Source: Escherichia phage P-GXEC-L2P5. From it: DNA of 64,000 nucleotides. A program made the translations under genes and the position numbers. This document shows positions 2,302 to 64,000 of the stretch, piece after piece. The stretch lies in sequence record PQ843332.1; one strand, written 5' to 3'. How positions within the stretch are numbered: the first letter of the stretch is position 1; each line of letters begins with the position of its first letter. Below the pieces are notes generated by a model. That model searched no databases and was not told the DNA's origin. It saw only the letters and a list, made by a program, of their open reading frames with translations.

Positions 2302-2427
2302 TTAATCTTCACCGCCGAGTTGTTTATAAACCTCGTCCGGGTCGTCGCCTCTTTCTTCGCAGAAGGCGGTGAATGCCGCCCAATTTTCTGCTATGAAATC
2401 GAGCATGATTCTCATTTCATAGTCCAT
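2302..2427 (-). CDS. small hypothetical protein (41 aa)
   Basis: Hand-translated MDYEMRIMLDFIAENW...; start directly after the upstream stop; conserved in unit 2. Confidence 0.35.
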   Translation of the reverse strand: MDYEMRIMLDFIAENWAAFTAFCEERGDDPDEVYKQLGGED

Positions 2428-2431
2428 GATA

Positions 2432-2950
2432 TTAGTCTTCCAGTTCGAAATAAGTCTCGACGATTTCTTTTAAATCTTTGTGGAAGTCTTCGACGTCGTC
2501 GTCTTCCAGCTTGGCGATTGATTTGATCTCGAACGCTTCCAGCAGGTCGTCAAATTCGTCGTTAGCATCGTCGTCATCACCACCGGCGATAATCGCGGCA
2601 TACTGTTTGATTTCGTCGCGCATCTCTGCCAGCGGATCGGCATCTTTCTTACCTTTGCCTTTCGCCGGTGCTTTTTTAGCCTTAGCCGGTTTTTCGTCTT
2701 CGGCGTCTTCGTCGTCGTCATCTTCTACGACTTCTTTTTTGGCCTTACCCTTCGCCGGTGCTTTTTTAGCTTTAGCCGGTTTTTCGTCTTCGGCTTCATC
2801 GTCGCCATCTTCGACAACTTCTTTTTTGGCCTTAGACGGCTTCTTGTCGTCCTGCTTACCAACGGCAGCGCCAACGGTTTCATAATGCTTAGCGATGACT
2901 TCCAGTGCTACTACGCCGCGAGTGATCAGGTTTACGATTTGCTCAAACAT
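2432..2950 (-). CDS. acidic/lysine-rich repeat protein, first gene of the leftward operon
   Basis: Internal in-frame repeat EVVED(D)..EDEKPAKAKKAPAKGK twice, poly-D/E tracts, GGAG RBS. Confidence 0.6.
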   Translation of the reverse strand: MFEQIVNLITRGVVALEVIAKHYETVGAAVGKQDDKKPSKAKKEVVEDGDDEAEDEKPAKAKKAPAKGKAKKEVVEDDDDEDAEDEKPAKAKKAPAKGKGKKDADPLAEMRDEIKQYAAIIAGGDDDDANDEFDDLLEAFEIKSIAKLEDDDVEDFHKDLKEIVETYFELED

Positions 2951-3264
2951 GGTATATCTCCGATTGGTTAAGTTTAGGTGTCGGCAGTTAACTTCGTCGG
3001 TGGCCTTAACATATTGCCAGGTTGCGCGTTCTCCCGTTCGGGTAGTGGACCTGGTTATATAATCACGGTTGGGAATCCTGACACTTCGATCCGGCCCCTG
3101 CGTTGCCCCTCCTTTCGGGTAGTGGACCTGGTTATATAATCACGGTTGGGAATCCTGACACTTCGATCCGGCCCCTGCGTTGCCCCTCTCCAGTTTGCGT
3201 CCTGCATCCTGTCGACGAGGTGAATGATAGATTGGTTGCAGGATGGGTGTCAACAACTAATTTC

Positions 3265-3298
3265 AAAAAAAAAGCGCCGAGGCAAAATGCGACGGCGC
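3265..3298 (-). terminator. rho-independent terminator on the minus strand inside the control region
   Basis: Stem GCGCCG/CGGCGC with 13-nt loop followed on the minus strand by a 9-10 T run; stem conserved in unit 2. Confidence 0.5.
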
Positions 3299-3369
3299 TA
3301 ACCAATAAGAGACAATGAGACGGGAATTATTATTACACGCGTGCGCGCCCGTTTCAATATCCAAAGGAT

Positions 3370-3398
3370 TTGACACCATGCAGTTTTAGGTGTAGTTT
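3370..3398 (+). promoter_or_regulatory. candidate sigma70-like promoter for the rightward operon
   Basis: Perfect TTGACA at 3370..3375, 17-bp spacer, weak -10 TAGTTT; conserved in unit 2. Confidence 0.35.
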
Positions 3399-3429
3399 CG
3401 TTGGTCATTAACCAACAGGAGACTGAATT

Positions 3430-3759
3430 ATGAATATCAAAGAAGCAATTGAAGTGTTATCTAATGCAATCCGCGGCGAAGCGGGTAAATCCTGGTATTA
3501 CACAAATGCGGTGGATACTCTGTTATTTGAAGTGTCCAGATTATCGCGTGCTGAGAAGGAGCTTACCGCGAAGCTGGAATTGCTCAACGGCACGGCAGCA
3601 AGCAAGCTGCAAAAACACAATGAAGAAATGGAAGAATACAAAAAGCAGGTTATCCGTTTGCGCAATGAGGGAAAGTCATGGGCAATGATCGCCGAGTTGA
3701 CCGGAATTAATCAGAGCACAGTGCGCTCCTGGGTACGCAATAATAAAACTTCAAAGTAA
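3430..3759 (+). CDS. HTH DNA-binding regulator
   Basis: C-terminal GKSWAMIAELTGINQSTVRSWV helix-turn-helix; first gene of the rightward operon. Confidence 0.6.
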   Translation: MNIKEAIEVLSNAIRGEAGKSWYYTNAVDTLLFEVSRLSRAEKELTAKLELLNGTAASKLQKHNEEMEEYKKQVIRLRNEGKSWAMIAELTGINQSTVRSWVRNNKTSK

Positions 3760-3846
3760 GGCAACGGCAATGAGCTTGATTAAATTCGCTGTAACACGAC
3801 CCGCTAAAAAAGGCGAAAAAGCCAGGTTCGAAGTAAGGCAACGGCA

Positions 3847-6111
3847 ATGAGCTTAATTAAATTCGCTGTAACACGACCCGCTAAAAAAGGCGAAAAAGCC
3901 AGGGCGGAAAACTTCCAGATGACTACCGAAGAGTTTTTCGAATTTATCAATGATGCGAAAGAAATCTCCTCGGTGCATATCAACAAAACGGAAGATAAAG
4001 CGGAGTATGCGCGCCGCAAGCGTAAGGCTGATGGGATTGTGGCTTATACCAGTGACGGATTACGCCGCAAGACCAGTGCGGTGGATCGCTCGATCCTGTT
4101 CTTCGATATTGACCGTACCGACACCCGCACCCTGCGCCGCTGCCGTAAGGCGTTCATCGACGCGGGACTGGAACATGTATTTCACACCACAACCGGCGAT
4201 CGCCACCCGCTGAAAGGTGGCACGCGTTGCGCTCGTTTCCTGGTGCTCACTGACAAGCCTGTACCGGCTGAAGACCTGGGCCGCGTCCAGTATGCACTAT
4301 TACACCAACTGGGCCTGTCAGATGTGGACTTCGACGATTGCACGAAAGACACAAACCGCCTTATGTACCTGCCTCACCAGCAATCGGTTGTTAAGTGTCA
4401 CTACGGCAAACGTGCCCGCGTCCGTCGTCTGCTTCGCCTGGCTGATAAGCTGGGAGTGGAAAAAGAGGAAGTACGCCGCGAGCTTACCCATGGCGACGAC
4501 GCAGTGGCAGACGGCATTCTGGACTGGTGCTTCCAGGCCGGATTCGAGGAGTTATCTTCTGGTCGCGGTTATGAAGTGCCGTGCCCGAACGAACATCTGC
4601 ATAGTGGCGAAGGGTCCACCGCTATCATGGTTAAGGATGGCGAGATCCGTTTCAAGTGTATGCACACCGGCAACGAGTGCTGTTCCGAACTGAACAGACA
4701 CCAGCACCTGGCGCTACGTCTTATCGGGATCCCGGACCACCTGAACGTCGAACCGCACAACATGTCACGTAAGCAAATCGCCGCCATCCTCCCAGGACTG
4801 GACGACGAGGAAGTGGAATCGTGCTATGCGCATATCGTTGATGCGGTCGGAGACGGCGACGAGTACGGCGGATGTACGGACGCAGACTTGGACAACGAGC
4901 CGGTTGCACTGTTCAGCAAGCACGACCCGATCATCGAGGGGTTGATTAACTTTAAATCGACCTGGTATCTTGCCGGTGAGTCGAACATCGGTAAGTCGTT
5001 CTATGTGCTGGGGCAAATGGGTGCGGTTGCCGCGGGGATTCCGTTCGGCGGCGCGAAGGTCGTCCAGTCTCATTGCTTCTATTTCGACGCGGAAGGTGGC
5101 GAAGCCTCCAACCAGCGTAAGGAAGCATTGCAGATTAAATATGAGCACGACCTGGACAAGCTGCACATTATCGATCTGCAATCACGCGGCTGGGATATCA
5201 CCAGCAAATCCGGCTTGCGTGAAGTTATCAGCTTCATCAACCGCACCGCTAACGGCGAGCCGGTTGGCCTGGTGGCGTTCGACTCACTCAACCAGACTGT
5301 TGCGCTGCGGTCCGCCGATGCTAAACCGTTCGACGAGAACAACGCCAGCGATATGGGTGAAGTGGTCAAAGCGCTGAAGGCCATTGCGGAAAATACAGGC
5401 GGCAGTGCGGGCGTCATCCACCACCCGGCGAAGGGTGCAAACGGCAGCAGATCTCCCCGTGGGTCCGGCGCGCTGCATGGCGCTGTCGATTCTGCGTTCT
5501 TCCTCGAGCAACCGGACGACAATCAGCCGGGCCAATTGAACCTGTATCACGAAAAGGCGCGTAACGGCATCAAGCAAGCGCCGCGCGGCTTCGTCCTGCT
5601 CAAGTGCAAGGTTAAGGTGGATCTCCGCAAGTCCGAAGCGTTCGAATCACACCAGTCCACCAGCACCGGGCCTGACTTCGGCGACGTGGTTGCCGGTTGG
5701 GACGTCAAGCCAATTGCATCCACGCCACGCGACGAGACTCTTTATCTCGTACCTGTCGCCCTGGCACCGTTCGCCATCGAACAGGCGAAGGCCGCGGGCA
5801 AGGCCGCAGTTAAGGATGAGAACGCCGCAGGACCGCGCAATGAAAAAGAGAAAGTGCTTTATGCGGCACTGGAAAAACTGATGGAAGATAACCCGGACCA
5901 TACCGGATTCAGTAAATCGGCAATTGTCCGCCAGGCGGGATTGGCAAAAGGTGGCACATCGACGAAGGCAATAGACGATATGGTGGAGCGCGGCGTGCTC
6001 GGTTTTTATACAGATCCGCACACCGGGGCCATCTATGGGTCGTCGAATATCGTCATTAAAACGAATATACCCATCACGCTTTCTGCGACCGATGACGATC
6101 TGAAAGATTAA
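3847..6111 (+). CDS. DNA primase/helicase (AEP primase-polymerase domain plus RecA-like P-loop NTPase)
   Basis: LFFDIDRTD and HVFHTTTG primase motifs; Walker A-like GESNIGKSFYVLG; 754 aa; start region duplicated at about 3770/3847. Confidence 0.85.
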   Translation: MSLIKFAVTRPAKKGEKARAENFQMTTEEFFEFINDAKEISSVHINKTEDKAEYARRKRKADGIVAYTSDGLRRKTSAVDRSILFFDIDRTDTRTLRRCRKAFIDAGLEHVFHTTTGDRHPLKGGTRCARFLVLTDKPVPAEDLGRVQYALLHQLGLSDVDFDDCTKDTNRLMYLPHQQSVVKCHYGKRARVRRLLRLADKLGVEKEEVRRELTHGDDAVADGILDWCFQAGFEELSSGRGYEVPCPNEHLHSGEGSTAIMVKDGEIRFKCMHTGNECCSELNRHQHLALRLIGIPDHLNVEPHNMSRKQIAAILPGLDDEEVESCYAHIVDAVGDGDEYGGCTDADLDNEPVALFSKHDPIIEGLINFKSTWYLAGESNIGKSFYVLGQMGAVAAGIPFGGAKVVQSHCFYFDAEGGEASNQRKEALQIKYEHDLDKLHIIDLQSRGWDITSKSGLREVISFINRTANGEPVGLVAFDSLNQTVALRSADAKPFDENNASDMGEVVKALKAIAENTGGSAGVIHHPAKGANGSRSPRGSGALHGAVDSAFFLEQPDDNQPGQLNLYHEKARNGIKQAPRGFVLLKCKVKVDLRKSEAFESHQSTSTGPDFGDVVAGWDVKPIASTPRDETLYLVPVALAPFAIEQAKAAGKAAVKDENAAGPRNEKEKVLYAALEKLMEDNPDHTGFSKSAIVRQAGLAKGGTSTKAIDDMVERGVLGFYTDPHTGAIYGSSNIVIKTNIPITLSATDDDLKD

Positions 6112-6255
6112 ATCCTGCGCGCATTGGTTGCCGGTATGGGAATTCCCATATCGCTAAAAGGTTAAATTTTGCGCGCATTGGTTGCCATTTTGAGTGTTTT
6201 TATCGGGTCGTATTGGTTGCCGTGTAGTGTAAATATAATGAATAGTTATGCAGTT

Positions 6256-6428
6256 TTATTGCATAAAGTAAGCGGGACAGAAAGCGGGACAAACAAGGGG
6301 CGGGACAAAGCGGGACAGCACCCCCGTCCCGCCCCGTATGGCGCGGCCTGGAGAGGAGCGGGACAGGCGGGACAACCCCCAGTCTTTCAGACTAGACGGG
6401 GGTCAGCGGCCCCCCTCGTCTGAGACTG
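6256..6428. repeat. iteron array: six GCGGGACA direct repeats preceded by TGCATAAA, then a GC-rich imperfect hairpin
   Basis: GCGGGACA at 6272, 6284, 6299, 6310, 6358, 6367; inverted repeat cagtctttcagactagacggggg / cccccctcgtctgagactg. Confidence 0.7.
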
Positions 6429-6645
6429 AATAAAATCCGGGGATTGCAAAATACACGGCAGCATGATGCGAAGTGCGGTCGCGGATGAACTAGGCAACCA
6501 ATGCGAGTTGCATTATGCGAAGTGAAAAATGCGGTTTGCAGTCACAGCAGATAGCGATCAACTTTTTCATGCGCGTGATTAATATTGGTTGCGTTCCGCC
6601 TGGCACCTTGCTATATTGGTTGCACCCCAACATGAGGACTGAACA

Positions 6646-9975: not shown

Positions 9976-10005
9976 TTGACTCGCAACCAACATAGGGGCC
10001 ATACT
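9976..10005 (+). promoter_or_regulatory. candidate sigma70-like promoter overlapping two GCAACCAA motifs
   Basis: TTGACT, 18-bp spacer, CATACT (TATACT in unit 2). Confidence 0.4.
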
Positions 10006-10176
10006 GCAACCAACCAACGAGAGGAGTAATCAAGATGGCACGTAAAGATATTTGGGTATTGGCAATCTGGACCACCGCAGCTTTCATCGGCATGGTTATT
10101 TGCGAATTGATATAGCCCGCCGCCATATGGACCGTGGTATATTGTCCACGGTCAACTAATCAGGAATTAATTAAAT

Positions 10177-18281: not shown

Positions 18282-18430
18282 TTTGTTACCCTCATTTGTT
18301 GGTATGCAACCAATATACTGCAACCAATCCACCAATGCAAGCAAATTTTGCGATTATTTTTATCGCTGATAATATTAGAAGCGTGAAGTCGAGCGGGTGG
18401 CCTGCTCTGCCACAATCCCAGGGGGATAGC

Positions 18431-24673: not shown

Positions 24674-25160
24674 TGAAGCGGGACAAGCGGGACGTCCCGT
24701 TTTGTCCCGCCCCTCAAAAACTGCATACTTATTTACTATTATTGCATAAACTAAAAGCGGGACAAGCGGGACGTCCCGATCTGGCACCCCTCTGAAAAGC
24801 GCATACCTATTCAGTTTTACTGCATAAACCAAACGGGACAAAAAGCGGGACAAACAAGGGGCGGGACAAAGCGGGACAGCACCCCCGCCCCGCCAGTGCT
24901 GCCGCGGGGTTTAGCCGATCGGGACAGGCGGGACAAAGCCCAGTCTTTCAGACTAGACGGGGGTCAATGGCCCCCCTCGCGCGGTTTTTAGCCGATCGGG
25001 ACAGGCGGGACAAAGCCCAGTCTTTCAGACTAGACGGGGGTCAATGGCCCCCCTCGTCTGAGACTGAATAAGGTTTGTTTTAAATTCGCTGATACAATGT
25101 TTCAGACTAGACGGGGGTCAATGGCCCCCCTCGTCTGAGACTGAATAAGGTTTGTTTTAA
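24674..25160. repeat. non-coding iteron/hairpin region between the chaperone and tape measure genes
   Basis: agcgggacaagcgggacgtcccg twice (24677..24699, 24756..24778) with 12-bp palindrome CGGGACGTCCCG; GCGGGACA x4 at 24833..24895; GC-rich hairpin repeated; TGCATAAA boxes; AT-rich tract 24720..24760. Confidence 0.7.
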
Positions 25161-38947: not shown

Positions 38948-38997
38948 GTTTACTATAGTGCAACCAACCTATTGGTTGCAAGTGAATTTTGCAACGT

Positions 38998-40887: not shown

Positions 40888-40968
40888 CGTGTCGTCTCCG
40901 GGTATTAAAAAGGGCGTCCAAACCGGACACCCTCAATATAATGCAACCAATCTAATTATGCAACCAAT

Positions 40969-49478: not shown

Positions 49479-49624
49479 ATGTATCGGGGTTATTGGAAGC
49501 CACCCCGTTCGGCTTGGTTGCTAATTTACTCCATTTTCCAATTCCTCATTTTCACATGTATCGGGGTTATTGGAAGCCACCCCGTTCGGCTTGGTTGCTA
49601 ATTTACTTGGTTGCGCCTGAGCGG

Positions 49625-49867
49625 TCAAGCATTTTCATTAAAAAGATTTCGGGTAACGTAGTTGGTCGCGTTCTCGATCCAGCTTAACGGCGGGCGGTTG
49701 ATGTTCTTCTCCACCCAATCGACGGCAGCTTCGCTATAGCCGTCATCCAGCCAGCGGGTCGGATGTCTAATCATCCATGCCACCATTAACACGCCTTGCA
49801 CACAATGCAGGATAAAGCCCAGCGCGCCGATAACAAACATCAATAAGATTGCGAATACTTTATTCAT
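49625..49867 (-). CDS. small membrane protein (80 aa)
   Basis: Hydrophobic N-terminus MNKVFAILLMFVIGALGFIL; same gene as the partial ORF at 1..169. Confidence 0.45.
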   Translation of the reverse strand: MNKVFAILLMFVIGALGFILHCVQGVLMVAWMIRHPTRWLDDGYSEAAVDWVEKNINRPPLSWIENATNYVTRNLFNENA

Positions 49868-51367
49868 TGCTTAAGTCCTCGTCAGTAGCTACAGACCACG
49901 CAGGGCGCGGGTCGTCGATGGGTGCTAATACCGGTTTAGCTGGTGCGCGCGTGATTTTATCACACAGCTTCGCCCATACTTTCGGCTTCTCGTCCTTCAA
50001 TACCTTCTCGGCATCAGTAGGGCTGAGTAATGTTTCTTTGTACATCACATCGCGCTTGATCCGGGCCTTCGTGAAGATTTCAATCACTTCGCTTTCGTCC
50101 GCCCACTTGCGAATCCCTTCCTTACCTGCAACCATCTTGAGGCCCAGCGATTCGCCGTCGCCCGCCATCACAGCCTTGAATACCGCGGACTCGATAGCCT
50201 TGATGTGCTGGCGCATTGCGTCCAGGCCTTCATAAGCCTTGCGCAGTTCCGCGGCGGTCATAGCGCCGGGGGCCGCTTCTTTCTTGCCACGCTTCGCACG
50301 TCGTGCCGCTTTGCGGGCTTCGCGGGCCATATTGCGGTCGTGATTGGCGCATTCTTCCTCTGTCGCAATACTCACGTCGTCGCCCAGGTCTTCGTCTGTT
50401 GCCGTTGGTGGGGTCATCGTGCCGATTGCAGCCTTAGCGCGGGCGCTACACTGATCCGCAAATCTGCACCACTGACACGCATCAACGCTCGGTCGGAAGT
50501 CGGCGCGGGTGAGTCCCTTTTTTCCGCGGGAGTACGCTTCCAGGGCGGCGATAGCACGCTTGGACGCAAACTTAGCGAATATCTCCAGGGCTTCTACCGA
50601 AATATCCCACTCCGACGCCCCGCCGCAATACGGCTGGAAGATAACAAGGCGCACGGTTGTAATGTCGTACATAGTTTTCAGCTTGCGCAGCAAGCCCAGC
50701 GCATACAACATAAGCTGTTTGTTTTCTTTCGCCTCGACCTTATGCCGCCCCGTCTTCAGGTCGCCAACAATCAGCATGTACGTGCCGTCGGTCTTCTTCA
50801 TGACCATGACCATATCGGCAGTACCGAACGTCTTAACCCGGTTGCCGTCGATCTCGAAGCCTGAGTGAAGGACGCGGGTCAGATCGGCGCGCATCTCAAG
50901 CTGAACAAACTCCGCCACTTCGAGGAGCGGTCGCCAGTGGTCGATGTACGCGTCGCACTGTTTCACCATGTCGTCGTTGACCAATACGCCGCCTTTCGGT
51001 GCTTTAGGGTGTGCCTTTCGATGTACGCGTCGCACTGTTTCACCATGTCGTCGTTGACCAGTACGCCGCCTTTCGGTGCTTTCGGGTGGGCCTTTACCGG
51101 CCCCTTACCTTCGTTCTCTACGTAGCACCCTTTGTACGTCTTAGCGGTTATCAGCTTCTCCCCGGCAATGATGCGGTTTAGCACCACTTCAGATACGGTG
51201 TGCATACTCGTACCGTTAATCGCCGCTTGCCCGGATTCGTTCGGGATATCTTTTTCCACCACCAGGGCGGCGGGACACCCCATCCATTTTTTAGCACCGG
51301 ATGGGCCAAGTAATGAGTGTTCTGTATTGCTACCGGATTGCGTTTTACGTTTTGGTTTAATCGCCAT
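49860..51367 (-). CDS. unit 2: DUF2800-type nuclease; frame broken by duplication near 50950..51070
   Basis: ORFs 49860..51035 and 50963..51367 with the same motifs as 162..1746. Confidence 0.7.
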
Positions 51368-51443
51368 TATTCCACCCGTGTAAACTGGACAATTACATAT
51401 TTCACATTACCGGATTGCGTTTTACGTTTTGGTTTAATCGCCA

Positions 51444-51623
51444 TTATTCCACCCGTGTAAACTGGACAATTACATATTTCACATTCGCCAAGCCCGCTTT
51501 TTCGACACGGCTGCGCACTTCATGCTGCGCATCGGTCCAGCACATCGAGGCGTCCTTGTTAACAACAAGAAAAGAGAAATGGTCGTTTAATTCGTGGCAA
51601 GTTGCCAGCACGAAAAATTTCAT
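51444..51623 (-). CDS. unit 2: small hypothetical protein (diverged homolog of 1823..2002)
   Basis: Hand-translated MKFFVLATCHELNDH... Confidence 0.35.
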   Translation of the reverse strand: MKFFVLATCHELNDHFSFLVVNKDASMCWTDAQHEVRSRVEKAGLANVKYVIVQFTRVE

Positions 51624-51874
51624 TATTTTGTCTCCCAGCGGTCAATTGTTTTTGCTTCGGATGCAACGGCGAAGCGAACATATTCCAGATTGGAGTCAGC
51701 CCAAATATAAAAATCGGGGTTAGTAAAGGTGGTGCGCTTAATTTGCGCGGGGGTGTTGCGGCGTTTATCTATTACGGCAACGCGGGATTGAAAGCTGCCG
51801 ATGCGTTCGAATAGCCAATAGTACGGGCGCTGGTCGCGGGAATCCACCGCCTCGATTAGCGTGAATCGTGCCAT
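51623..51874 (-). CDS. unit 2: hypothetical protein (homolog of 2002..2253)
   Basis: ORF, 83 aa. Confidence 0.55.
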   Translation of the reverse strand: MARFTLIEAVDSRDQRPYYWLFERIGSFQSRVAVIDKRRNTPAQIKRTTFTNPDFYIWADSNLEYVRFAVASEAKTIDRWETK

Positions 51875-51922
51875 TGTCTCGTCCTCTAAAAAGAGGCCCG
51901 CTAATATGCGGGCCGGATAATA

Positions 51923-52048
51923 TTAATCTTCACCGCCGAGTTGTTTATAAACCTCGTCCGGGTCGTCGCCTCTTTCTTCGCAGAAGGCGGTGAATGCCGC
52001 CCAATTTTCTGCTATGAAATCGAGCATGATTCTCATTTCATAGTCCAT
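51923..52048 (-). CDS. unit 2: small hypothetical protein (homolog of 2302..2427)
   Basis: Same start/stop arrangement as unit 1. Confidence 0.3.
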   Translation of the reverse strand: MDYEMRIMLDFIAENWAAFTAFCEERGDDPDEVYKQLGGED

Positions 52049-52052
52049 GATA

Positions 52053-52644
52053 TTAATCTTCCAGTTCGAAATAAGTTTCGACGATTTCTTTTAGCTCTTT
52101 GTGGAAGTCTTCGACGTCGTCATCTTCCAGCTTAGCGATTGATTTGATCTCGAACGATTCCAGAAGGTCGTCGAATTCGTCGTTCGCATCGTCGTCATCG
52201 CCACCGGCGATAATCGCGGCATACTGTTTGATTTCGTCGCGCATCTCCGCCAGCGGATCGGCATCTTTCTTACCTTTGCCTTTCGCCGGTGCTTTCTTAG
52301 ACTTAGCCGGTTTTTCGTCTTCGGCATCGGCATCGTCGTCGTCATCTTCTACGACTTCTTTTTTGGCCTTACCTTTCGCCGGTGCTTTTTTGGTTTTCGC
52401 CGGTGCTTCGTCTTCAGCGTCGTCATCTTCTACGACTTCTTTTTTTTACCTTTCGCCGGTGCTTTTTTGGTTTTCGCCGGGGCTTCGTCTTCAGCGTCGT
52501 CATCTTCTACGACTTCTTTTTTGGCCTTAGACGGCTTCTTGTCTTCCTGTTTACCAACGGCAGCGCCAACGGTTTCATAATGCTTAGCGATGATTTCCAG
52601 TGCTACTACGCCGCGAGTGATCAGGTTTACGATTTGCTCAAACA
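52053..52644 (-). CDS. unit 2: acidic/lysine-rich repeat protein; frame broken by duplication near 52370..52500
   Basis: ORFs 52053..52244 and 52430..52873 share the KPAKAKKAPAKGK repeats. Confidence 0.5.
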
Positions 52645-53123
52645 TGGTATATCTCCGATTGGTTAAGTTTAGGTGTCGACCATTAACTTCGTCGGTGGCC
52701 TTAACATAGTGCCAGGTTACGCGTTCTCCCTTTCGGGTAGTGGACCTGGTTATATAATCACGGTTGGGAATCCTGACACTTCGATCCGGCCCCTGCGTTG
52801 CCCCTCTCCAGTTTGCGTCCTGCATCCTGTCGACGAGGTGAATATTAGATTGGTTGCAGAAGGGAGTCAACAACTAATTTCAAAAAAAAAGCGCCGAAGC
52901 AAAATGCGACGGCGCTAACCAATAAGAGACAATGAGACGGGAGTATTATTACACGCGTGCGCGCCCGTTTCAATATTCCAAAGGAGTTGACACCACCAAT
53001 AAGAGACAATGAGACGGGAGTATTATTACACGCGTGCGCGCCCGTTTCAATATCCCAAAGGAGTTGACACCCTGCGGTTTTAGGTGTAGTTTCATTGGTC
53101 ATTAACCAACCGGAGACAGAATA

Positions 53124-53453
53124 ATGAATATCAACGACGCAATCGAAATGCTAACGAAGACTGTCTGCAGTGAGACTAGCCGGTCCTGGGCGTATACCGA
53201 TGCCGTGGGGGCGGTGCTATTTGAAATCGAACGTCTGCGACTTACCGAAAAAGAATTGCGCGCCAGGCTGGAATTACTCAACGGTACGGCAGCCAGCAAG
53301 CTGCAAAAGCACAATGAAGAAATGGAAGAATACAAAAAACAGGTTATCCGTCTACGTGAGGAAGGTAAATCCTGGGCTATGATCGCCGAGCTAACCGGAA
53401 TCAACCAGAGCACCGTGCGCTCCTGGGTACGCAATAATAAAACTTCGAAGTAA
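53124..53453 (+). CDS. unit 2: HTH regulator (diverged N-terminus, conserved C-terminal HTH)
   Basis: 109-aa ORF homologous to 3430..3759. Confidence 0.6.
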   Translation: MNINDAIEMLTKTVCSETSRSWAYTDAVGAVLFEIERLRLTEKELRARLELLNGTAASKLQKHNEEMEEYKKQVIRLREEGKSWAMIAELTGINQSTVRSWVRNNKTSK

Positions 53454-53463
53454 GGCAACGGCA

Positions 53464-55959
53464 ATGAGCTTAATTAAATTCGCTGTAACACGACCCGCTA
53501 AAAAAGGCGAAAAAGCCAGGGCGGAAAACTTCCAGATGACCACCGATGAATTTTTCGAATTTATCAATGATGCGAAAGAAATCGCGAAAAAGCCAGGGCG
53601 GAAAACTTCCAGATGACCACCGATGAATTTTTCGAATTTATCAATGACGCGAAAGAAATATCATCGGTGCATATCAACAAGACCGAGGATAAAGCGGAGT
53701 ATGCGCGCCGCAAGCGTAAGGCCGATGGCATCGTAGCGTATACCAGTGACGGCTTACGCCGCAAGACCAGCGCGGTGGACCGCTCGATCCTGTTCTTTGA
53801 TATTGACCGCACCGACACTCGCACCTTACGCCGCTGCCGTAAGGCGTTCATTGACGCGGGTCTGGAACACGTATTCCACACAACCACCGGCGACCGCCAC
53901 CCGCTTAAAGGCGGCACGCGTTGCGCTCGCTTCCTGGTACTCACTGATAAGCCGGTCCCGGCTGAAGACCTGGGCCGTGTCCAGTATGCGCTATTACATC
54001 AACTTGGTCTGTCGGATGTGGACTTCGACGATTGCACGAAAGACACAAACCGCCTGATGTACCTGCCGCACCAGCAATCGGTTATTAAGTGCCACTACGG
54101 CAAACGTGCCCGCGTCCGTCGTCTGCTTCGCCTGGCGGATACGCTTGGCGTGGAGAAGGAAGAAGTACGCCGCGAGCTTACCCAGGGCGACGACGCAGTG
54201 GCGGACGGGATTCTGGACTGGTGCTTCCAGGCAGGATTCGAGGAGTTATCTTCCGGTCGCGGTTATGAAGTGCCGTGCCCGAACGAACATCTGCACAGCG
54301 GCGAAGGGTCGACGGCTATCATGGTCAAGGATGGCGAGATCCGTTTCAAGTGTATGCACACCGGCAACGAGTGTTGCTCTGAGCTGAACAGACACCAGCA
54401 CCTGGCGCTACGTCTTATCGGGATACCGGACCACCTGAACGTCGAGCCGCACAACATGTCACGTAAGCAAATCGCCGCCATCCTCCCAGGGCTGGACGAC
54501 GAGGAAGTCGAATCCTTATATGAACATATTGTTGATGCGGTTGGCGACGGCGAAGAATACGGCGTGTGCACCGATGCGGATCTGGATAACGAGCCGGTCG
54601 CACTGTTGTTGATGCAGTTGGCGACGGCGAAGAATACGGCGTGTGCACCGATGCGGATCTGGATAACGAGCCGGTCGCACTATTCAGTAAGCACGACCCG
54701 ATCATCGAAGGCCTGGTCAACTTCAAATCGACCTGGTACATGGCTGGCGAGTCGAACATCGGTAAATCGTTCTACGTGCTGGGCCAAATGGGCGCGGTTG
54801 CCGCGGGGATTCCGTTCGGCGGTGCGAAGGTCGTCCAGTCTCATTGCTTCTATTTCGACGCGGAAGGTGGCGAAGCCTCCAACCAGCGTAAGGAAGCATT
54901 GCAGATCAAATATGAGCACGACCTGGACAAGCTGCACATTATTGACCTGCAATCACGCGGCTGGGATATCACCAGCAAATCAGGCTTGCGTGAAGTTATC
55001 AGCTTCATCAACCGCACCGCTAACGGCGAGCCGGTTGGCCTGGTGGCGTTCGACTCACTCAACCAGACTGTTGCGCTGCGGTCCGCCGATGCAAAACCGT
55101 TCGACGAGAACAACGCCAGCGATATGGGCGAAGTGGTCAAAGCGCTGAAGGCCATTGCGGAAAATACAGGCGGCAGTGCGGGCGTCATCCACCACCCGGC
55201 GAAAGGTGCAAACGGCCGCAGATCTCCCCGTGGGTCCGGCGCGCTGCATGGTGCTGTCGATTCTGCGTTCTTCCTGGAGCAACCGGACGACAACCAGCCA
55301 GGTCAATTGAACCTGTATCACGAAAAGGCACGTAACGGCATCAAGCAAGCGCCGCGCGGCTTCGTCCTGCTCAAGTGCAAGGTTAAGGTGGATCTCCGCA
55401 AGTCCGAAGCGTTCGAAGCCCACCAGTCCACCAGCACCGGGCCAGACTTCGGCGATGTGGTTGCCGGTTGGGACGTCAAACCAATTGCGTCCACCCCGCG
55501 CGACGAGACTCTATACCTCGTACCGGTAGCCCTGGCACCGTTCGCGATAGAACAGGCGAAGGCGGCGGGCAAAGCCGCAGTTAAGGAAGAGAACACCGCC
55601 GGTCCGCGCAACGAAAAAGAGAAAGTGCTTTATGCGGCCCTGGAAAAACTGATGGCAGATAACCCTGACCATACTGGATTCAGTAAATCGGCAATTGTAC
55701 GCCAGGCGGGACTCGCTAAGGGTGGCACTTCGACGAAGGCAATAGACGATATGGTCGAGCGCGGCGTGATTGGTTTCTATACAGATCCGCACACCGGGGC
55801 CATATATGGGTCGTCGAATTTAGTCATCAAATCTGATATCCCCTGATTGGTTTCTATACAGACCCGCACACCGGGGCCATATATGGGTCGTCGAATTTAG
55901 TCATCAAATCGGAGATCCCCATAACGCTTTCGGCGACCGATGACGACCTGAAAGACTAA
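53464..55959 (+). CDS. unit 2: DNA primase/helicase; frame broken by duplications
   Basis: ORFs 53613..55148 and 54641..55846 homologous to 3847..6111. Confidence 0.8.
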
Positions 55960-56030
55960 ATCCTATTTTGAGTGTTTTTAGCTGGTCGCATTGGTTGCCG
56001 TGCAGTATAAATATAGTGAATAGTTATGCA

Positions 56031-56210
56031 ATAAAACTGCATAAAGTAAGCGGGACAAAAAGCGGGACAAACTTGGGGCGGGACAAAGCGGGACAGCACC
56101 CCCGTCCCGCCCCGGATGACGCGGCCTGGAGAGGAGCGGGACAGGCGGGACAACTCCCAGTCTTTCAGACTAGACGGGGGTCAGCGGCCCCCCTCGTCTG
56201 AGACTGCATA
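56031..56210. repeat. unit 2: GCGGGACA iteron array plus GC-rich hairpin
   Basis: Same TGCATAAA / GCGGGACA / hairpin architecture as 6256..6428. Confidence 0.7.
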
Positions 56211-56422
56211 AAATCCGGGATTGCAAAATACACGGCAGCACATTGGAAATCGCGGTCGTCGATGAACTGGGCAACCAATGCGAGTTGCAGAATGTGGTGT
56301 GAAAAATGCAGTTTGCAGTCACAGCTGATAGCGATCAACTTTTTCATGCGCATGATTAATATTGGTTGCATTCATGCCAGCACCCTGCTAGATTGGTTGC
56401 ACACCAACATGAGGGCTGAACA

Positions 56423-56749
56423 ATGAAAGCGATTATCTGGAATTACGCAATGGCTATGGCGAAGGCACAAGAAGCGGCGGAGTTCGCCGGGGAGGGGGCG
56501 GAAGCAGTAGAGAGACTATCGGCAGCGTGGTCCGTTGTTCGCGTCACGCAGCAGGCCATCGCCTGTATGCTTGAGCGCCGCTTCGACACGATGGCGGAGA
56601 TCCAGCCGTTGGCGAACGCTATCCAGGACTACGCGCTTGCATTTGCCCGTGAACGCCTGGCGTATCGCTTCGGGATCGGAGAGACGGCAGTGACAAACGT
56701 TGCCCGGATTAAAGCCCAGCGTGAGCTATTCGCCCAGCTTGCGAAATAA
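56423..56749 (+). CDS. unit 2: hypothetical protein (homolog of 6646..6972)
   Basis: ORF, 108 aa. Confidence 0.55.
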   Translation: MKAIIWNYAMAMAKAQEAAEFAGEGAEAVERLSAAWSVVRVTQQAIACMLERRFDTMAEIQPLANAIQDYALAFARERLAYRFGIGETAVTNVARIKAQRELFAQLAK

Positions 56750-57024
56750 GAGGCCAAAATGACCCGTAGACGCGCAAAACAGCTTTCGTGGCATATCCCC
56801 CTGCATTGCATACGAATATGGGCTAAGAATGCGAATGCGGGGGACTCTGTGTACTGGTGCTATCGCGACGACGTTAAGCCGTTGACGCAGACTCGCTACT
56901 TGCACCAGTTCGCCGCGCAACATGATTTCTATGTGCGGACCTCCTTGCAACCAATGGGGATCCGTATTACATTACGCCGGAAGCCCGCAGTCGAGCGGGT
57001 AGGCAAACACTGGAGACTGAGCAA

Positions 57025-57567
57025 ATGAAATTACTATTCCGCCGAAAATCAGATGGCCGCATTCTTAAGCCAATACAGACCCTTGACACCCATGTGCGAC
57101 TTCACCACGCCGCAAGCGATCGTGTCTGGTGGGCGAATAAGGCAAAGCTGCCGGAGAAATACGAAATCCTCACGCATGATATTGAGCGCGGCGATGTGCT
57201 GCGTGATATTCGCGACGGGCAATTGTGGGTCGTTGAGCACACCAGCCAGCACGGCTTGCGTATGCAAACCCGCAAGGGCGGAGTAGTGGGTAACATACAG
57301 AGGGTTATGACGTACTTCGGGCTAATCCACTACGAGCGCGTGGGGCGCAAATACTGCCTGCGCAACCGCCAGCCTCATGAGCGCGCAACCTACGACTCCC
57401 ACCAGGTGCAAGCGAAGATGGGCCGCGCCGTACACCAAATCGTCAATCGCTTTGATGCCGTGACGAACGCACAACGCCATGCGCAGGAATACGGTGTTGG
57501 ATTCATCCAGGTGGAACGAGACGGCAGCATGAAAGCCATCGACCCGCGCTCGGTGATTCTGAAATGA
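57025..57567 (+). CDS. unit 2: hypothetical protein (homolog of 7537..8109)
   Basis: ORF, 180 aa. Confidence 0.55.
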   Translation: MKLLFRRKSDGRILKPIQTLDTHVRLHHAASDRVWWANKAKLPEKYEILTHDIERGDVLRDIRDGQLWVVEHTSQHGLRMQTRKGGVVGNIQRVMTYFGLIHYERVGRKYCLRNRQPHERATYDSHQVQAKMGRAVHQIVNRFDAVTNAQRHAQEYGVGFIQVERDGSMKAIDPRSVILK

Positions 57568-57710
57568 GTGCGACGATCCGTGATATGCTTCAGCACAACC
57601 GCTTTGAGATAGGCGGTCGGGTGTTTCGCAATTACTTCGTGGCGCGTGCATGGGCGCGCCATATTGGCAAACCGGAAGGGGCAATTCGATGCTATACGTC
57701 TTCGCGGTAG
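57564..57710 (+). CDS. unit 2: small hypothetical protein (homolog of 8106..8252)
   Basis: ATGA overlap conserved. Confidence 0.3.
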   Translation: MSATIRDMLQHNRFEIGGRVFRNYFVARAWARHIGKPEGAIRCYTSSR

Positions 57711-57774
57711 TATGTGGCGGTAGTCTGGCGGCCCTGGTGCTGTTGGCGTCGGTTATTAGTCTGGTTAAATACCT

Positions 57775-58074
57775 ATGGGGCAGATTATGATTCATGATGT
57801 GATTTATTGGTTTGGTATGGCCAGCATGTTATGCCTGGTTACGGGAGTGCTGGGCGCAATATGGGTATTCCTGGTATGGCCTGCGGTGGAAGCTGCCAGC
57901 ATTACCCGGATGACATTCGAGATCTACAAGCGCCGTGGAATAACGGAGCACCCGACCAGGCTTCGGATGTGGTGGCTGTGGTATCGGGATATGATAGGCG
58001 GTCGAACATTCGAAGCCGTCCGCTCATCCGGGTGGGAGTGGAAAGGCGTCGGCAAGTTGTCCGTTTTCGATTAA
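57775..58074 (+). CDS. unit 2: small membrane protein
   Basis: Identical in protein sequence to 8317..8616. Confidence 0.45.
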   Translation: MGQIMIHDVIYWFGMASMLCLVTGVLGAIWVFLVWPAVEAASITRMTFEIYKRRGITEHPTRLRMWWLWYRDMIGGRTFEAVRSSGWEWKGVGKLSVFD

Positions 58075-58203
58075 TTATGCAAGCGTGATATAGTCCCAGT
58101 GAGCTCGGGTGGGAGTGGAAAGGCGTCGGCAAGTGGTCCGTTTTCGATTAATTATGCAAGCGTGATATAGTCCCAGTGAGCTAAAACTTACTGGGACTTT
58201 TTT

Positions 58204-58494
58204 ATGGATAAGCTAAACGAGTGGCTATTCGCCCTGGCATGTCTGGCGGGTGGCTTCGTAGGCGCACGCATTCATGGTGAGGCTACGAAGGGGCCGCTAA
58301 ACTTCGTTTTGTATGTTGTAGTTGGCTTCCTGTGTGCCATATTTGGCGCACCGGCTATTGCCGAGTGGGCTGGTTTGTCGGGTGAGCGCACTGTCGCCGG
58401 TTTGGGCTTCGTAACTGCGATCTTCTGGATGCCAATCGCCGACCGGATCAGGGAGACTATTGCGTCGTTCCGACTTCCGGGGGGCGCAAAATGA
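58204..58494 (+). CDS. unit 2: holin-like membrane protein
   Basis: 96-aa ORF ending with ATGA overlap into the next gene. Confidence 0.5.
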   Translation: MDKLNEWLFALACLAGGFVGARIHGEATKGPLNFVLYVVVGFLCAIFGAPAIAEWAGLSGERTVAGLGFVTAIFWMPIADRIRETIASFRLPGGAK

Positions 58495-58736
58495 TTATCT
58501 CCGTCCTGTTGTTTGTTATCATCGGGGCTTCGTCCCTGTTTAACGTGTATGCGCCGTCCGTCCGGGATGGCATTTTCGGTCGGGTGCTGTATCTGTTAAC
58601 GGCAATGGTCTGTATTATCGGATTGTTGCAAACAGGAGACGTATCGGATACCACCTGGACCGCGTTAATCTGGCTGTTTGCATTGCGCACCCTGCGTAAT
58701 GCTGTTTTAAATGGGGTAAAACATGCGATTCAGTGA
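58491..58736 (+). CDS. unit 2: small membrane protein
   Basis: Homolog of 9032..9277. Confidence 0.5.
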   Translation: MIISVLLFVIIGASSLFNVYAPSVRDGIFGRVLYLLTAMVCIIGLLQTGDVSDTTWTALIWLFALRTLRNAVLNGVKHAIQ

Positions 58737-58799
58737 TAACGGTCTTCTGGCTGTTTGCATTGCGCACCCTGCGTAATGCTGTTTTGAATGGGGTAAAAC

Positions 58800-59445
58800 A
58801 TGCGATTCAGTGATAACGGTCTACGATTTACGGCAGCCTGGGAGGCTTTCAGCCCGGTGCCGTATTTCGCGACCAAGAAAGAGCAGGCCCGCGGCCTGTA
58901 CACCTGGGGCTATGGTCACAGGCTTTCAGCCCGGTGCCGTATTTCGCGACCAAGAAAGAGCAGGCCCGCGGCCTGTACACCTGGGGTTATGGTCATACCG
59001 GCACTAATCCGCCTCGAAGCATTACCCGCGAGGAAGCGCTGGCACTGCTCAAGCGCGATGTGGCGTATGCTGAGGACTGGGTTAACAAATACGCACATCC
59101 GAGCATTAACCAGGCGCAATTCGACGCGCTGGTGGACCTGGTAATCAACGCCGGTCCGGGTCCGATCGTACCGGATGACGTCGCGAATGATTTCGATGAT
59201 GCGGTGTGGTGGACCTGGTAATCAACGCCGGTCCTGGTCCGATCGTACCGGATGACGTCGCGAATGATTTCGATGATGCGGTACGGTTGGGCGACTGGGC
59301 GAAGGTCCGTGCTACGCTGCCGCAGTTCCGCAAGCAAGGCGGCGAAGTGCTTAAGGGTCTGGTACGCCGTGCAATCGGCAGACAGGCGTTGTTTGATGGT
59401 AAGCAGTGGGACGTTGCCGAACGAATCGGTCGTAACGCTGCATAA
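58800..59445 (+). CDS. unit 2: GH24 endolysin; frame broken by duplications
   Basis: ORFs 58934..59221 and 59206..59445 carry the GYGHTG and NQAQFDALVDLVINAG motifs. Confidence 0.75.
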
Positions 59446-59461
59446 TACGAGGTAACACAGT

Positions 59462-59629
59462 ATGTTAAAAAGTATTCTTGATCATAATGCGGACGCGCTT
59501 GCTGCACTGGCTAAAACCGAAGATCCGGGCGCTCGCGCTATCATCGCGGACTCTATAAACCACGCTGGGGTCTTCGATGCGAAGCTGCCTAGCCCACCAC
59601 CGCAGGAGGAATCTGGTCCTGCAGCGTAA
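59462..59629 (+). CDS. unit 2: small hypothetical protein (homolog of 9772..9939)
   Basis: ATG 59462; same proline-rich C-terminus. Confidence 0.3.
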   Translation: MLKSILDHNADALAALAKTEDPGARAIIADSINHAGVFDAKLPSPPPQEESGPAA

Positions 59630-59943
59630 ACAATCAAGCCCGGGGGGTCTTCGATGCGAAGCTGCCAAGCCCACCACCGCAGGAGGAATCTGGTCCTGCA
59701 GCGTAAACAATCAAGCCCGGAATTAACCGGGCTTTTTATTGCTTGACTTGCAACCAACATAGACTCTATACTGCGACCAATCAACGAGAGGAGTAATCAA
59801 GATGGCACGTAAAGATATTTGGGTATTAGCGATCTGGACCACCACGGCTTTTATCGACATGGTTATTTGCGAATTGATATAGCCCGCCGCCATACGGACC
59901 GTGGTATATTGTCCGCGGTCCACTAATCAGGAATTAATTAAAT

Positions 59944-61163
59944 ATGCACCCGCAAACTAAAATTACCGATGAGCAATTGATCGCAGAAATTCAGGAAGGG
60001 ACTACAGTTAAAGAGATTGCGAAGAAGTACGGCATCGCACTTCGAAATGTCTATATGCGCAAAGCCCGCCTGTCTAAAAAGGGGATTGGTCACGGCAATG
60101 ATGCAGTGATCCGTAAGCGCGTTGCCGATGGTTTTGGTGTTAAGCGCGTATCGGCCCTGGTACGCGGCAATGGCGAAGAGGTCATGTCGTGGGTCATCAC
60201 TGAGCAGGACAAAGAGCGCCAACTCGAAGCCATGCGCGCTGTTGCAATGGCGAAGAGGTCATGTCGTGGGTCATCACTGAGCAGGACAAGGAGCGCCAAC
60301 TCGAAGCCATGCGCGCTGTTGTCGAGGGTATGAACAGCGAAATCACACCGGCAGCGCCCGTAAACGCCACGCCAGTCCCGATTCAGGCGCTCGACTTGCT
60401 CAACCTGTACACAGTGTCCGACTTCCACCTGGGTATGCTGGCGTGGGGCGAGGAGACTGGCGAAGACTGGGATATGGCGATTGCTGAAGACCTGTTCTAC
60501 CGCTGGTTTGTCGAAGCCTTCGCCCGCGCACCGGACGCAGGAACTGCCGTTATCAATATCCTCGGGGATATGGCCCACTTTGATAGCCTTGATGCCGTCA
60601 CACCGGCAAGCGGTCACGTACTGGACGCCGACACACGATACCAGAAGTTGGTCCGCTATATGATTCGCATGGTGCGCAACGTGGTTGACCTGGCGCTGCA
60701 AAAACACCACAAAGTAAAACTGCTAATCGTCCAGGGTAATCATGACGAGTCGGGCATGATTTGGCTTGCTGAGATGTTCAATACCCTGTATGAGAACGAG
60801 CCGCGCGTCGATGTGGACACGTCCCCGGACGTCTACAAAATGGTGCAGCACGGTAAGACCACGCTATTTTTCCACCACGGGCACAAAGCGCGATTCGATG
60901 TTATCGAGCAGGTTATGATCGCTAAATTCAGACAGGCGTTCGGGGCGAGCGAATACAGCTACGCGCACGTAGGCCATTTGCACCACCAGAAGATTGTTGA
61001 ATCCCGCAACATGATTGTCGAACAGCACAGGACGCTCGCAGCGAAAGACGCCTACGCCAGTCGTGGCGGCTGGATGAGCGGTCGCAGCGCAAACGTCATC
61101 ACCTATAGCGCCAACTACGGAGAAGTAGCGCGCTTAACCATTAGCCCGGAAATGTTGAAGTAA
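59944..61163 (+). CDS. unit 2: HTH-metallophosphoesterase fusion; one duplication near 60170..60290
   Basis: ORFs 59944..60333 and 60261..61163 are contiguous when collapsed; all phosphoesterase motifs present. Confidence 0.7.
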
Positions 61164-61349
61164 CGGCGACCCGTAACCAGCCCAGCCTGCCGATTTGGTG
61201 GGCTTTTTTGTGCCTGTTATAATCCCCGTTAGATGGCAGGGCCGTCTCCTATGTTGCCGATGGCTGCCGATTTGGTGGGCTTTTTTGTGCCTGTTATAAT
61301 CCCCCTTAGATGGCAGGGCCGTCTCCTATGTTGCCGATGGTCGGCGCAT

Positions 61350-61922
61350 ATGAACAAAAGGGCATATATCATGGCAGAAATCAAAGTTAAGGGCCGACGC
61401 GCCAAACTGGACGGACGAGTAGCAGTTACCCCGCGCCGTAAACCAGGCGAGCAAACCGAGCATACCAATCTCGGACCTGAAATCGAGTACGGAAAGCGCC
61501 GTAAAGGCGGCAAATGTGGACGCCCTACGGACTACCGATCCGTTTACTGCGACCAGCTTCGCCGCTATTTTGCCGACGCCGACGCCTGGCAGGTCAACTA
61601 CTCCGATAAAGGCGCTGCGCAAGTAATCCCCCGCAACAAAATGCCAACCTTTGGTCGATTTGCCGCGGAAATCGGTGTGGGCGTAGCTTGCCTGTATCGC
61701 TGGGCGCGCGCACATGAGGAGTTCGCCGAGGCGATGGCGGATGCTATGGAGTTGCAGAAAACTTTCCTGATGGAAGCTGGTGGCGTAACCATCGCGGCGG
61801 GCTTCGCTACGTTCCTGCTTAAAGCAAACCACGGCGTCCGCGACGATGTACCGCTGGACGACGACGAAGATGATAACGGCGACGTCGTTGTGGAACCTAC
61901 CGGCAAAGGTCAGGGTGATTAA
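61350..61922 (+). CDS. unit 2: terminase small subunit
   Basis: Homolog of 11856..12428; N-terminal MNKRAYIMAEIK conserved. Confidence 0.65.
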   Translation: MNKRAYIMAEIKVKGRRAKLDGRVAVTPRRKPGEQTEHTNLGPEIEYGKRRKGGKCGRPTDYRSVYCDQLRRYFADADAWQVNYSDKGAAQVIPRNKMPTFGRFAAEIGVGVACLYRWARAHEEFAEAMADAMELQKTFLMEAGGVTIAAGFATFLLKANHGVRDDVPLDDDEDDNGDVVVEPTGKGQGD

Positions 61923-63384: not shown

Positions 63385-63395
63385 GGAAACCGACC

Positions 63396-64000
63396 ATGAC
63401 CGTTAACGTTGACAACCAGCACCCGCTCTATGCGCGCATAGCGCCAGAGTGGAAAATGATCCGTGACTGCGTAGCAGGGGAGCGCGCCGTGAAGGCGTGC
63501 GGGCCATTGTACCTGCCACACCCCGCAAGCGGGGACACCACCGACCCGAAATCACGGGCACGCTATAAGGCATATAAGCAACGCGCTGTCTTCCTGAACG
63601 CCACCGCCCGCACACTGAATGCGCTGTTAGGTGTCGCCTTCGCCAAACCGGTGAGTATGGACCTTTCCGGGGCAATGGCTGACCTGATTGATGACGTAGA
63701 CGGCAGCGGGATGCCACTGGCGCAACTACTGCGCGGCGCTATGTCGGAAGTGCTGCAATCAGGCCGTGCCGGTTTTATGGTGGACTACGACCGCCAGGCG
63801 CATTTTGACGAACTGGGTAACGTAGTGCCGCAGACCGCCGCTGAAATGGCGGCACACCGCCCGCTTATCCGCCTGTATACGGCTGAACAGATCATCAACT
63901 GGCGGCGCAGACCGCCGCTGAAATGGCAGCACACCGCCCGCTTATCCGCCTGTATACGGCTGAACAGATCATCAACTGGCGGCAGACCCACGGGGTAGAC
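63396..64000 (+). CDS. unit 2: portal protein, 5' part (runs off the window end)
   Basis: Homolog of the 13901 start; duplication near 63830..63960. Confidence 0.55.

Follow-up and report, generated by a model that had tools for sequence, protein, structure and literature searches.

What does a strong leftward terminator stop, when no leftward gene lies ahead of it? The question is raised by the intergenic region at positions 2951-3429 of a stretch of 64,000 nucleotides of Dhillonvirus DNA from Escherichia phage P-GXEC-L2P5 (sequence record PQ843332.1), the whole of which is called the window below. The region separates a leftward gene (2432-2950) from a rightward one (3430-3759), just as the first-pass annotation of this DNA had it in calling it a divergent control region, and it is the sole divergence point of the genome of the related Escherichia phage slur05. 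No minus-strand gene was found upstream of the terminator; the rightward arm, from 3430 to ~37500, is entirely on the plus strand, and since this holds for ~34 kb, the terminator is usable only by a transcript that starts within ~130 bp of it. The best explanation of the terminator, to which we give roughly even odds, is a short leftward RNA of ~56 nt, predicted together with its own promoter. The full arrangement would then be, with a probability of about 0.5, the early divergent control region of Dhillonvirus, comprising the small RNA, the terminator, a promoter of the leftward operon (P-left) and a structured leader RNA. What is observed directly is the sequence anatomy and conservation of the region, along with compensatory changes in its terminator and covariation within the leader.

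The hairpin of the terminator is made of the strands GCGCCG..CGGCGC at 3274-3298 and is preceded on the plus strand by A9 (3265-3273), i.e. U9 on the minus strand, where the RNA reads AGCGCCG-UC-GCA-UUU-UGC-CU-CGGCGCU followed by U9. Its fold has a predicted energy of -16.7 kcal/mol, as compared to a mean of -10.3 for 200 shuffled sequences (z = -3.1), none of which was as stable. It was omitted by our promoter/terminator scan because its apical part is over the loop limit of that scan. In 43 loci collected from GenBank, IMG/VR and metagenomes, the terminator has five sequence variants, four of which differ solely in the 2x2 internal loop, while the fifth (loci L005 and L039) has the outer stem changed from GCGCCG/CGGCGC to UCCCCG/CGGGGA by two compensatory pairs, and an apical A-U pair turned into a G-U wobble. 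The A/U-run is 7-13 long across these loci and never shorter than 7 by a strict regular-expression count. Because the stem changes are compensatory and the U-tract stands beside the hairpin on the minus strand only, we regard the hairpin as probably functional at the level of RNA. By these comparative criteria a real, selected Rho-independent terminator is well supported, its termination activity being predicted. The first-pass annotation had placed a minus-strand terminator at 3265..3298, and the stability of the fold, the changes in the relatives and the retained U-run all bear it out.

A leftward transcript starting between 3300 and 3430, as proposed by the same annotation, is the simplest job for such a terminator, and a conserved sigma-70-like candidate promoter is indeed found there, ~30 bp upstream of the terminator. 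A start ~7 nt past its -10 element (3321-3322) and an end in the U-run (~3266) give the length of ~56 nt, of which the 5'-most ~25 nt should be unpaired according to the predicted fold. The spacer of this promoter contains, at 3333-3347, a 15-nt perfectly alternating pyrimidine-purine tract (TACACGCGTGCGCGC), which is potentially Z-DNA-prone or supercoiling-sensitive. The small-RNA promoter and P-left are the two sigma-70-like sites, both leftward, reported by a consensus scan; promoter-like hexamer pairs with at least 9 of 12 matches arise by chance ~1.8 times per 1.5 kb. The promoter on the other strand, P-right, was read by eye; it is conserved and escaped the scan with only 3/6 matches in its -10, and its -35 (3370-3375, plus strand) is the perfect TTGACA to which attention had been drawn earlier. 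P-right and the small-RNA promoter stand back-to-back, with their -35 hexamers 12 bp apart, and P-right is predicted to drive the whole rightward arm, beginning with the gene of a helix-turn-helix (HTH) protein and the helicase-primase gene. The three promoters are not new, since the GenBank record of phage HK578 already annotates them at homologous positions, as an independent prediction and with no RNA or terminator. In phages of the HK578 type the replacement of the right-hand gene includes what lies to the right of the P-right -35, and all to the left of it is kept.

Sequence diversity was compared in 14 phage loci that had been gathered by homology to the 109-aa HTH protein and are hence unbiased for the DNA in question. 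The 24-nt body of the small RNA has a pairwise diversity of 0.000, with no substitutions and one 1-nt deletion in one phage; the values are 0.041 for the terminator, 0.045 for the small-RNA promoter, 0.090 for P-left and 0.13-0.18 for the first 60 codons of the flanking genes. No other stretch of the locus is as conserved as the body, a result that fits a seed region and could also fit a DNA site. The suggestion that the transcript is antisense was not supported: no gene on the plus strand overlaps the predicted RNA, nor does any convincing plus-strand promoter, and a search for a cis-antisense partner found neither a conserved plus-strand open reading frame (ORF), the candidates being broken by frame-shifting indels, nor a plus-strand promoter upstream of 3266-3322.

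According to the scheme that we propose, the sigma-70 promoter lying back-to-back with P-right would drive the synthesis of the small RNA, whose ~25-nt unpaired 5' region is invariant across the compared phages; the Rho-independent terminator would end this RNA and shield P-left; and the transcript from P-left would open with a folded leader of 159 nt ahead of the first leftward gene. We infer that the promoters fire and that the short RNA accumulates and acts in trans, with the terminator insulating P-left at the same time. Divergent early control regions of phages that hold a small RNA and an insulating terminator are a known class, to which this locus would belong.

The leader was missed by the first-pass annotation, which let the leftward operon start at 2950, whereas the transcript is predicted to begin near 3217, where the start of P-left coincides with the 5' end of the leader's helix P1. 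The fold comprises the terminal helix P1, which joins the 5' end with the 3' end, a P2 hairpin with a CAGGA loop, an invariant long-range helix P3, and an inner part of nested helices b/b', P4 and P5, mostly GNRA-capped. This structure was derived by hand and turned into a covariance model (R1) built from the lineage of phage Arya alone, followed by re-alignment; RNAalifold run on a plain MAFFT alignment had been dropped, as it gave a poor structure with the variable helices misaligned. Model R1 finds full-length matches of 93-210 bits in every one of the five lineages. In the first of the two genome passes that make up the window (unit 1, described below) it finds two partial matches, 2991-3111 and 3113-3205, split by an artefactual duplication of 77 bp, and the second pass (unit 2) has an intact copy.

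In the R1 alignment 95.0% of cells are paired, versus 22-37% with the partners slid by 1-3 columns; the alignment was fitted to our own structure, which weighs against our reading in that it inflates the percentage of paired cells, and not the two-sided changes. The latter affect 20 of the 34 pairs, and the observed covariation score was reached by none of 500 shuffles. In P1, b, P4 and P5 the two-sided changes can be seen in the raw sequences as well, G-U pairs are obtained only if the minus strand is read as RNA, and in Dhillonvirus as well as in phage BUCT618 the leader starts at the predicted start site. With covarying helices, on the transcribed strand and at a fixed position relative to the promoter, it has, on comparative grounds, the attributes of a structured cis-acting 5' leader RNA. 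The box TTATATAAT singled out by the first-pass annotation forms, in the Dhillonvirus leader, the 5' side of helix b; other phage genera have GGCCGA or GGCCAG in its place, with the partner strand changed to match. Its reading as a promoter -10 was rejected, no plus-strand promoter being called there, and the two boxes of unit 1 are a single one duplicated by the artefact.

Table 1. Features of the divergent region and related elements (positions in the window; features of RNA and promoters are predicted)
Feature	Position	Strand	Description
Predicted small RNA	3266-3322	minus	~56 nt: 5'-(C)GUCUCAUUGUCUCUUAUUGGUUA, hairpin, U-tail
Candidate small-RNA promoter	3357-3329	minus	TTGAAA-17-AATAAT, 10/12 matches, plus TG (TGn, extended -10)
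Intrinsic terminator	3265-3299	minus	7-bp GC-rich stem (6 G-C pairs), 2x2 internal loop, 3-bp apical stem, U9
P-left	3253-3224	minus	sigma-70-like, TTGACA-18-TATCAT, 11/12 matches; predicted start near 3217
Structured 5' leader RNA	2981-3216	minus	true length 159 nt; broken by the 77-bp artefact in unit 1
Intact leader copy, unit 2	52676-52834	minus	covariance model R1, 95.7 bits
P-right	3370-3398	plus	TTGACA-17-TAGTTT
Palindrome	3400-3416	plus	GTTGGT-N5-ACCAAC; inverted AACCAA pair over the predicted P-right start; operator-like
GCAACCAAY sites	3231-3239, 6123-6623 (6 copies), 9983-10014, 18306-18328, 35705, 38960-38979, 40943-40968, 44287		equivalents also in unit 2
First leftward gene	2432-2950	minus	172-aa acidic/lysine-rich protein; slur05 gp47, phrog_3127; replication/recombination arm
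Translation-initiation region of the left gene	2957-2970	minus	TAACCAATCGGAGA; Shine-Dalgarno GGAGA; one of three TAACCAAYNRGAGA copies
First rightward gene	3430-3759	plus	109-aa protein with C-terminal helix-turn-helix (HTH_23 / Sigma70_r4_2)
77-bp duplication in the intergenic region	3037-3113 / 3114-3190		second copy artefactual; carries the duplicated TTATATAAT
77-bp artefact of unit 2	52918-53071		duplicates the small-RNA body, the small-RNA promoter and the P-right -35
Further examples of 77-bp duplications	391-544, 1240-1392, 3037-3188, 3750-3903, 63829-63983		

The ATTGGTT motifs reported earlier from the region are part of a genome-wide pattern. There are three AACCAAT/ATTGGTT sites in the region and 31 in the window, as compared to 7.8 expected (a four-fold enrichment; none of 100 shuffles reached the count). 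The 9-mer GCAACCAAY has 28 sites as compared to 1.6 expected (~18-fold), in both orientations and mostly in non-coding gaps. One full box is found in the region (GCAACCAAT, in the spacer of P-left), and the 535-bp gap that follows the helicase-primase gene contains six, a cluster that could mark a replication origin. With this distribution GCAACCAAY resembles an operator or iteron recognized by a DNA-binding protein, for which the adjacent 109-aa HTH protein is an obvious candidate. The reading of ATTGGTTGCA as a -35 element was rejected, since it fails at most sites.

The terminator may be nothing but an insulator that keeps stray transcription, or that from the divergent promoter, from occluding P-left, the short transcript then being a functionless by-product. 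Insulation, which the first-pass annotation had also proposed, fits the geometry, as P-left lies directly downstream, with its -35 only 11 bp from the terminator. In Arya and BUCT618, too, a homologous promoter-plus-leader module is directly preceded by a terminator, there closing the preceding operon, and no target was found for the small RNA. However, a pure insulator would not need the 24-nt body to be the most conserved stretch of the locus, and a strong conserved promoter making only waste would be unparsimonious; we regard insulation alone as unlikely, albeit worth keeping in view, and insulation as such is compatible with a function of the RNA as well. The conservation of the block 3299-3360 can also be explained at the level of DNA, as a protein-binding or replication-origin sequence by the helicase-primase operon, with the hairpin either incidental or part of it. 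The block holds an AACCAAT box, an AT-rich run and an alternating GC tract, the motif recurs genome-wide as described above, and both the HTH protein and the helicase-primase are encoded directly to the right. On the other hand, compensatory changes that keep a hairpin with a U-run on one strand only are the signature of an RNA terminator, and the densest GCAACCAAT cluster, that of six copies at 6123-6623, lies elsewhere and is a better candidate for an origin; a DNA-level element is in our view quite unlikely.

Another way for the small RNA to act would be to pair with the ribosome-binding sites of both flanking first genes and to repress their translation, like Sar of phage P22 or c4 of P1. 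The 14-mer TAACCAAYNRGAGA occurs in exactly three copies per unit, within 460 bp (2957, 3299 and 3409), as compared to 2.5 copies expected even with two mismatches allowed. Two of the copies mark the ribosome-binding sites of the flanking genes and the third lies opposite the small RNA, which is therefore partly complementary to both sites. The predicted duplexes, of about -18.0 and -17.2 to -17.7 kcal/mol, cover the Shine-Dalgarno sequences and are near the 1st percentile when ranked among genomic windows. Yet the two sites rank just 3rd-5th of the 58 translation-initiation regions of slur05, many random windows pair better in a genome-wide duplex scan, and in many Dhillonviruses the pairing with the Shine-Dalgarno sequence is lost (their ribosome-binding site is UGAGGGC) though the small RNA is invariant; besides, the small RNA is the same in HK578-type phages, where both the right-hand gene and the leader are unrelated. 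Because of the non-specific ranking and the non-conserved Shine-Dalgarno pairing, this explanation is kept only as a rival of low probability. An extremely unlikely functional unit is a plus-strand mini-ORF of 24 codons, whose ATG at 3315 follows the ribosome-binding-site-like TAACCAATAAGAGA: its Shine-Dalgarno-like sequence and its ATG are only 2 nt apart, it has no plus-strand promoter upstream, and in the aligned sequences 1-nt indels shift the frame between close relatives, with lengths of 19-24 codons, on which account it was rejected.

Several points weigh against the small RNA and the control region that we favour. The promoters and the RNA are predictions from the sequence, hexamer pairs that resemble promoters are frequent by chance, at the rate given above, and the spacer of the small-RNA promoter in locus L005 is 15 nt. 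The whole of 3217-3360 is highly conserved throughout, and conservation alone cannot separate a promoter plus RNA from a DNA-level element. A search of the phage sequences gave no convincing target for the small RNA, and the RNA matches no Rfam family; the middling rank of the two ribosome-binding sites and the loss of their pairing count here as well.

The leader has a history of its own. Between P-left and the left gene stands a block of ~150 bp that is near-identical wherever it is present in the aligned relatives, and that is precisely absent from 4 of the 14 Dhillonviruses (L005, L008, L011 and L014), which have a 13-nt hairpin instead. Outside the genus, BLAST searches with the block found it in Jilinvirus (Arya, IME279, KA2-1, Bas97), in Warwickvirus (JK16, swan01, tunus and others) and also in Changchunvirus PHB17, BUCT618 and others (the leader-bearing loci include L042-L045 and L050-L065). 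There it is always unannotated and always occupies a gap in a series of genes encoded on the strand that matches the minus strand of the window. The ORFs downstream of it in the five lineages are mutually unrelated, and for this reason the leader was rejected as a gene-specific autoregulatory target. In BUCT618 a promoter, TTGACA-16-TATAGT, ends 8 nt before the leader copy, and in Arya and JK16 no more than a -10-like element can be recognized before it. A search of the window region against Rfam 15 gave best scores of 13-22 bits versus gathering thresholds of 39-72, the leader being broken there by the artefact; the intact copies of five phages gave no match at E <= 1, and the literal leader sequence was not found in the literature searched. 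Among 185,579 bacterial species genomes the leader core is present in one, on a phage-like contig of 42.8 kb (L065; QFQS01000013.1) labelled as a metagenome-assembled genome (MAG) of Cereibacter sphaeroides, where the leader is full-length (189.7 bits). It is probably a contig of a Jilinvirus-like phage mis-binned into a bacterial MAG, and the sole bacterial match thus gives no prophage reservoir.

Comparison with known regulatory RNAs offers leads only. The put RNAs of phage HK022 are cis-acting antiterminator RNAs that follow the early promoters PL and PR closely. Similarly, the leader would fold at or within a few nt of the start of a strong early promoter, ahead of a long multi-gene operon, and it is a portable module placed before unrelated first genes. 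However, put is ~70 nt long with two stem-loops, an architecture that the leader does not share, having 159 nt, 6 helices and a core of ~60 nt that is invariant and unpaired or non-covarying; there is no sequence relationship, and some Dhillonviruses naturally lack the leader. The P2 loop (CAGGAUG, CAAGGAUUG or CAGGACG) resembles the repeat of CsrB, CAGGA(U/C/A)G, and the leader has an invariant second UCAGGAUUCC and a GGAGAGG, which like the loop are similar to CsrA sites. In contrast to the CsrA-titrating RNAs of the CsrB/RsmZ type, it possesses 2-3 GGA sites rather than the ~18-22 of CsrB, and the rest of the fold is without a counterpart. The small RNA, in turn, is reminiscent of the OOP RNA of phage lambda, which is 77 nt long and runs from the promoter pO to the terminator tO. 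Both would be short leftward transcripts with their own sigma-70 promoter and a strong intrinsic terminator, located in an early control region beside replication genes and directed against a rightward early operon. The differences are that OOP overlaps the 3' end of cII and is a true cis-antisense RNA, whereas no known plus-strand transcript overlaps the small RNA, that no sequence or Rfam similarity exists, and that Dhillonviruses are virulent and make no lysogeny decision. With P22 Sar and P1/P7 c4 the predicted RNA shares the small size and a single-stranded region resembling the complement of a ribosome-binding site, but its complementarity to the flanking genes is partial, non-specific and not conserved, and, unlike Sar, it is not made from within the leader of its target.

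Of the two genes that flank the region, the left one encodes a 172-aa protein for which a Pfam search gave no match. It contains a genuine 90-nt in-frame tandem repeat at 2661-2834, of which HK578 lacks one copy, its protein having 143 aa. To the right, the 109-aa HTH protein, annotated elsewhere as 'transposase' or 'Gam', is a candidate regulator. In slur05 the leftward arm (the minus strand of the window) comprises gp47-gp58 followed by gp01-gp09, with genes for an exonuclease, a Gp2.5-like single-stranded DNA-binding protein, DNA polymerase, helicase, methyltransferases and ligase, and the rightward arm (plus strand) comprises gp46, the helicase-primase and the lysis, packaging, head and tail genes.

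The composition of the window has to be kept in mind when its repeats are interpreted. A blastn search of 2400-3900 against the phages in GenBank returned 194 records, nearly all of them Dhillonvirus coliphages, with slur05 at 99.7% identity. The window corresponds to ~1.3 passes of a circularly assembled Dhillonvirus genome of ~44 kb, and its two related passes, ~49.6 kb apart, have 86-97% mutual identity. Since unit 1 (1-49600) is 99.6-99.9% identical to slur05 and unit 2 (49600-64000) just 84-96% identical to slur05 or jat, the two passes are different strains joined in a strain-chimeric assembly path and not a biological tandem repeat. Tandem Repeats Finder identified ~65 tandem duplications in the whole window, each of two copies and all with a period of exactly 77 bp; they are distributed evenly across coding and non-coding DNA, and the copies of some differ by 1-2 bases. 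They are absent from the real phages slur05 and jat, because blastn alignments of the window with these step back 77 nt at every junction. They are an assembly artefact, best explained as segments of a k = 77 assembly graph joined with their overlaps untrimmed, and with the duplications removed the spacing of 49.6 kb becomes the ~44-kb genome typical of the genus. In the intergenic region 3037-3111 is identical to 3114-3188, and its length, given earlier as ~480 bp, is 402 bp once the artefact is discounted, as in slur05; its conservation in unit 2, also claimed, was borne out by the comparison. These duplications bear on any finding of a repeat, a frameshift or a duplicated motif made in the same window. 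A hairpin-containing unit (…CAGACTAGACGGGGGTCAATGGCCCCCCTCGTCTGAGACTG…) is repeated at 6341-6433, 24902-25148 and 56119-56211, in numbers partly inflated by the 77-bp artefacts; these units resemble plus-strand terminators that are used again at the ends of several operons. In a scan of metagenomes with an 18-mer, about half of the 24 matches were due to chance, and one came from a contig (L024, OQVL01056812.1) in which the Illumina adapter AGATCGGAAGAGCGTCGTGTAGGGAAAGAGTGT is spliced into a Dhillonvirus intergenic region, i.e. from a chimeric public record.

Literature searches by genus, phage name and literal sequence yielded nothing relevant, and no transcript map of a Dhillonvirus. The leader is the more novel object of the locus and raises its interest. 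We consider as tentative, and on balance doubtful, the bolder view that it represents an undescribed class of phage RNA, a portable promoter-proximal module in at least four genera of virulent enterobacterial siphophages, working as a factor-independent antiterminator, as a switch responding to a ligand or host factor, or as a decoy (e.g. of CsrA). The ~56-nt RNA would then be a second new regulator, and early development would be controlled by two non-coding RNAs encoded in this 400-bp region. Dhillonviruses and related phages are frequent in phage-therapy work and the BASEL collection, and a small RNA and a covarying leader without an Rfam match, placed beside the early promoters, make concrete and cheap targets, while the phages that naturally lack the leader provide ready controls for learning how a virulent siphophage without an RNA polymerase of its own organizes its early expression.

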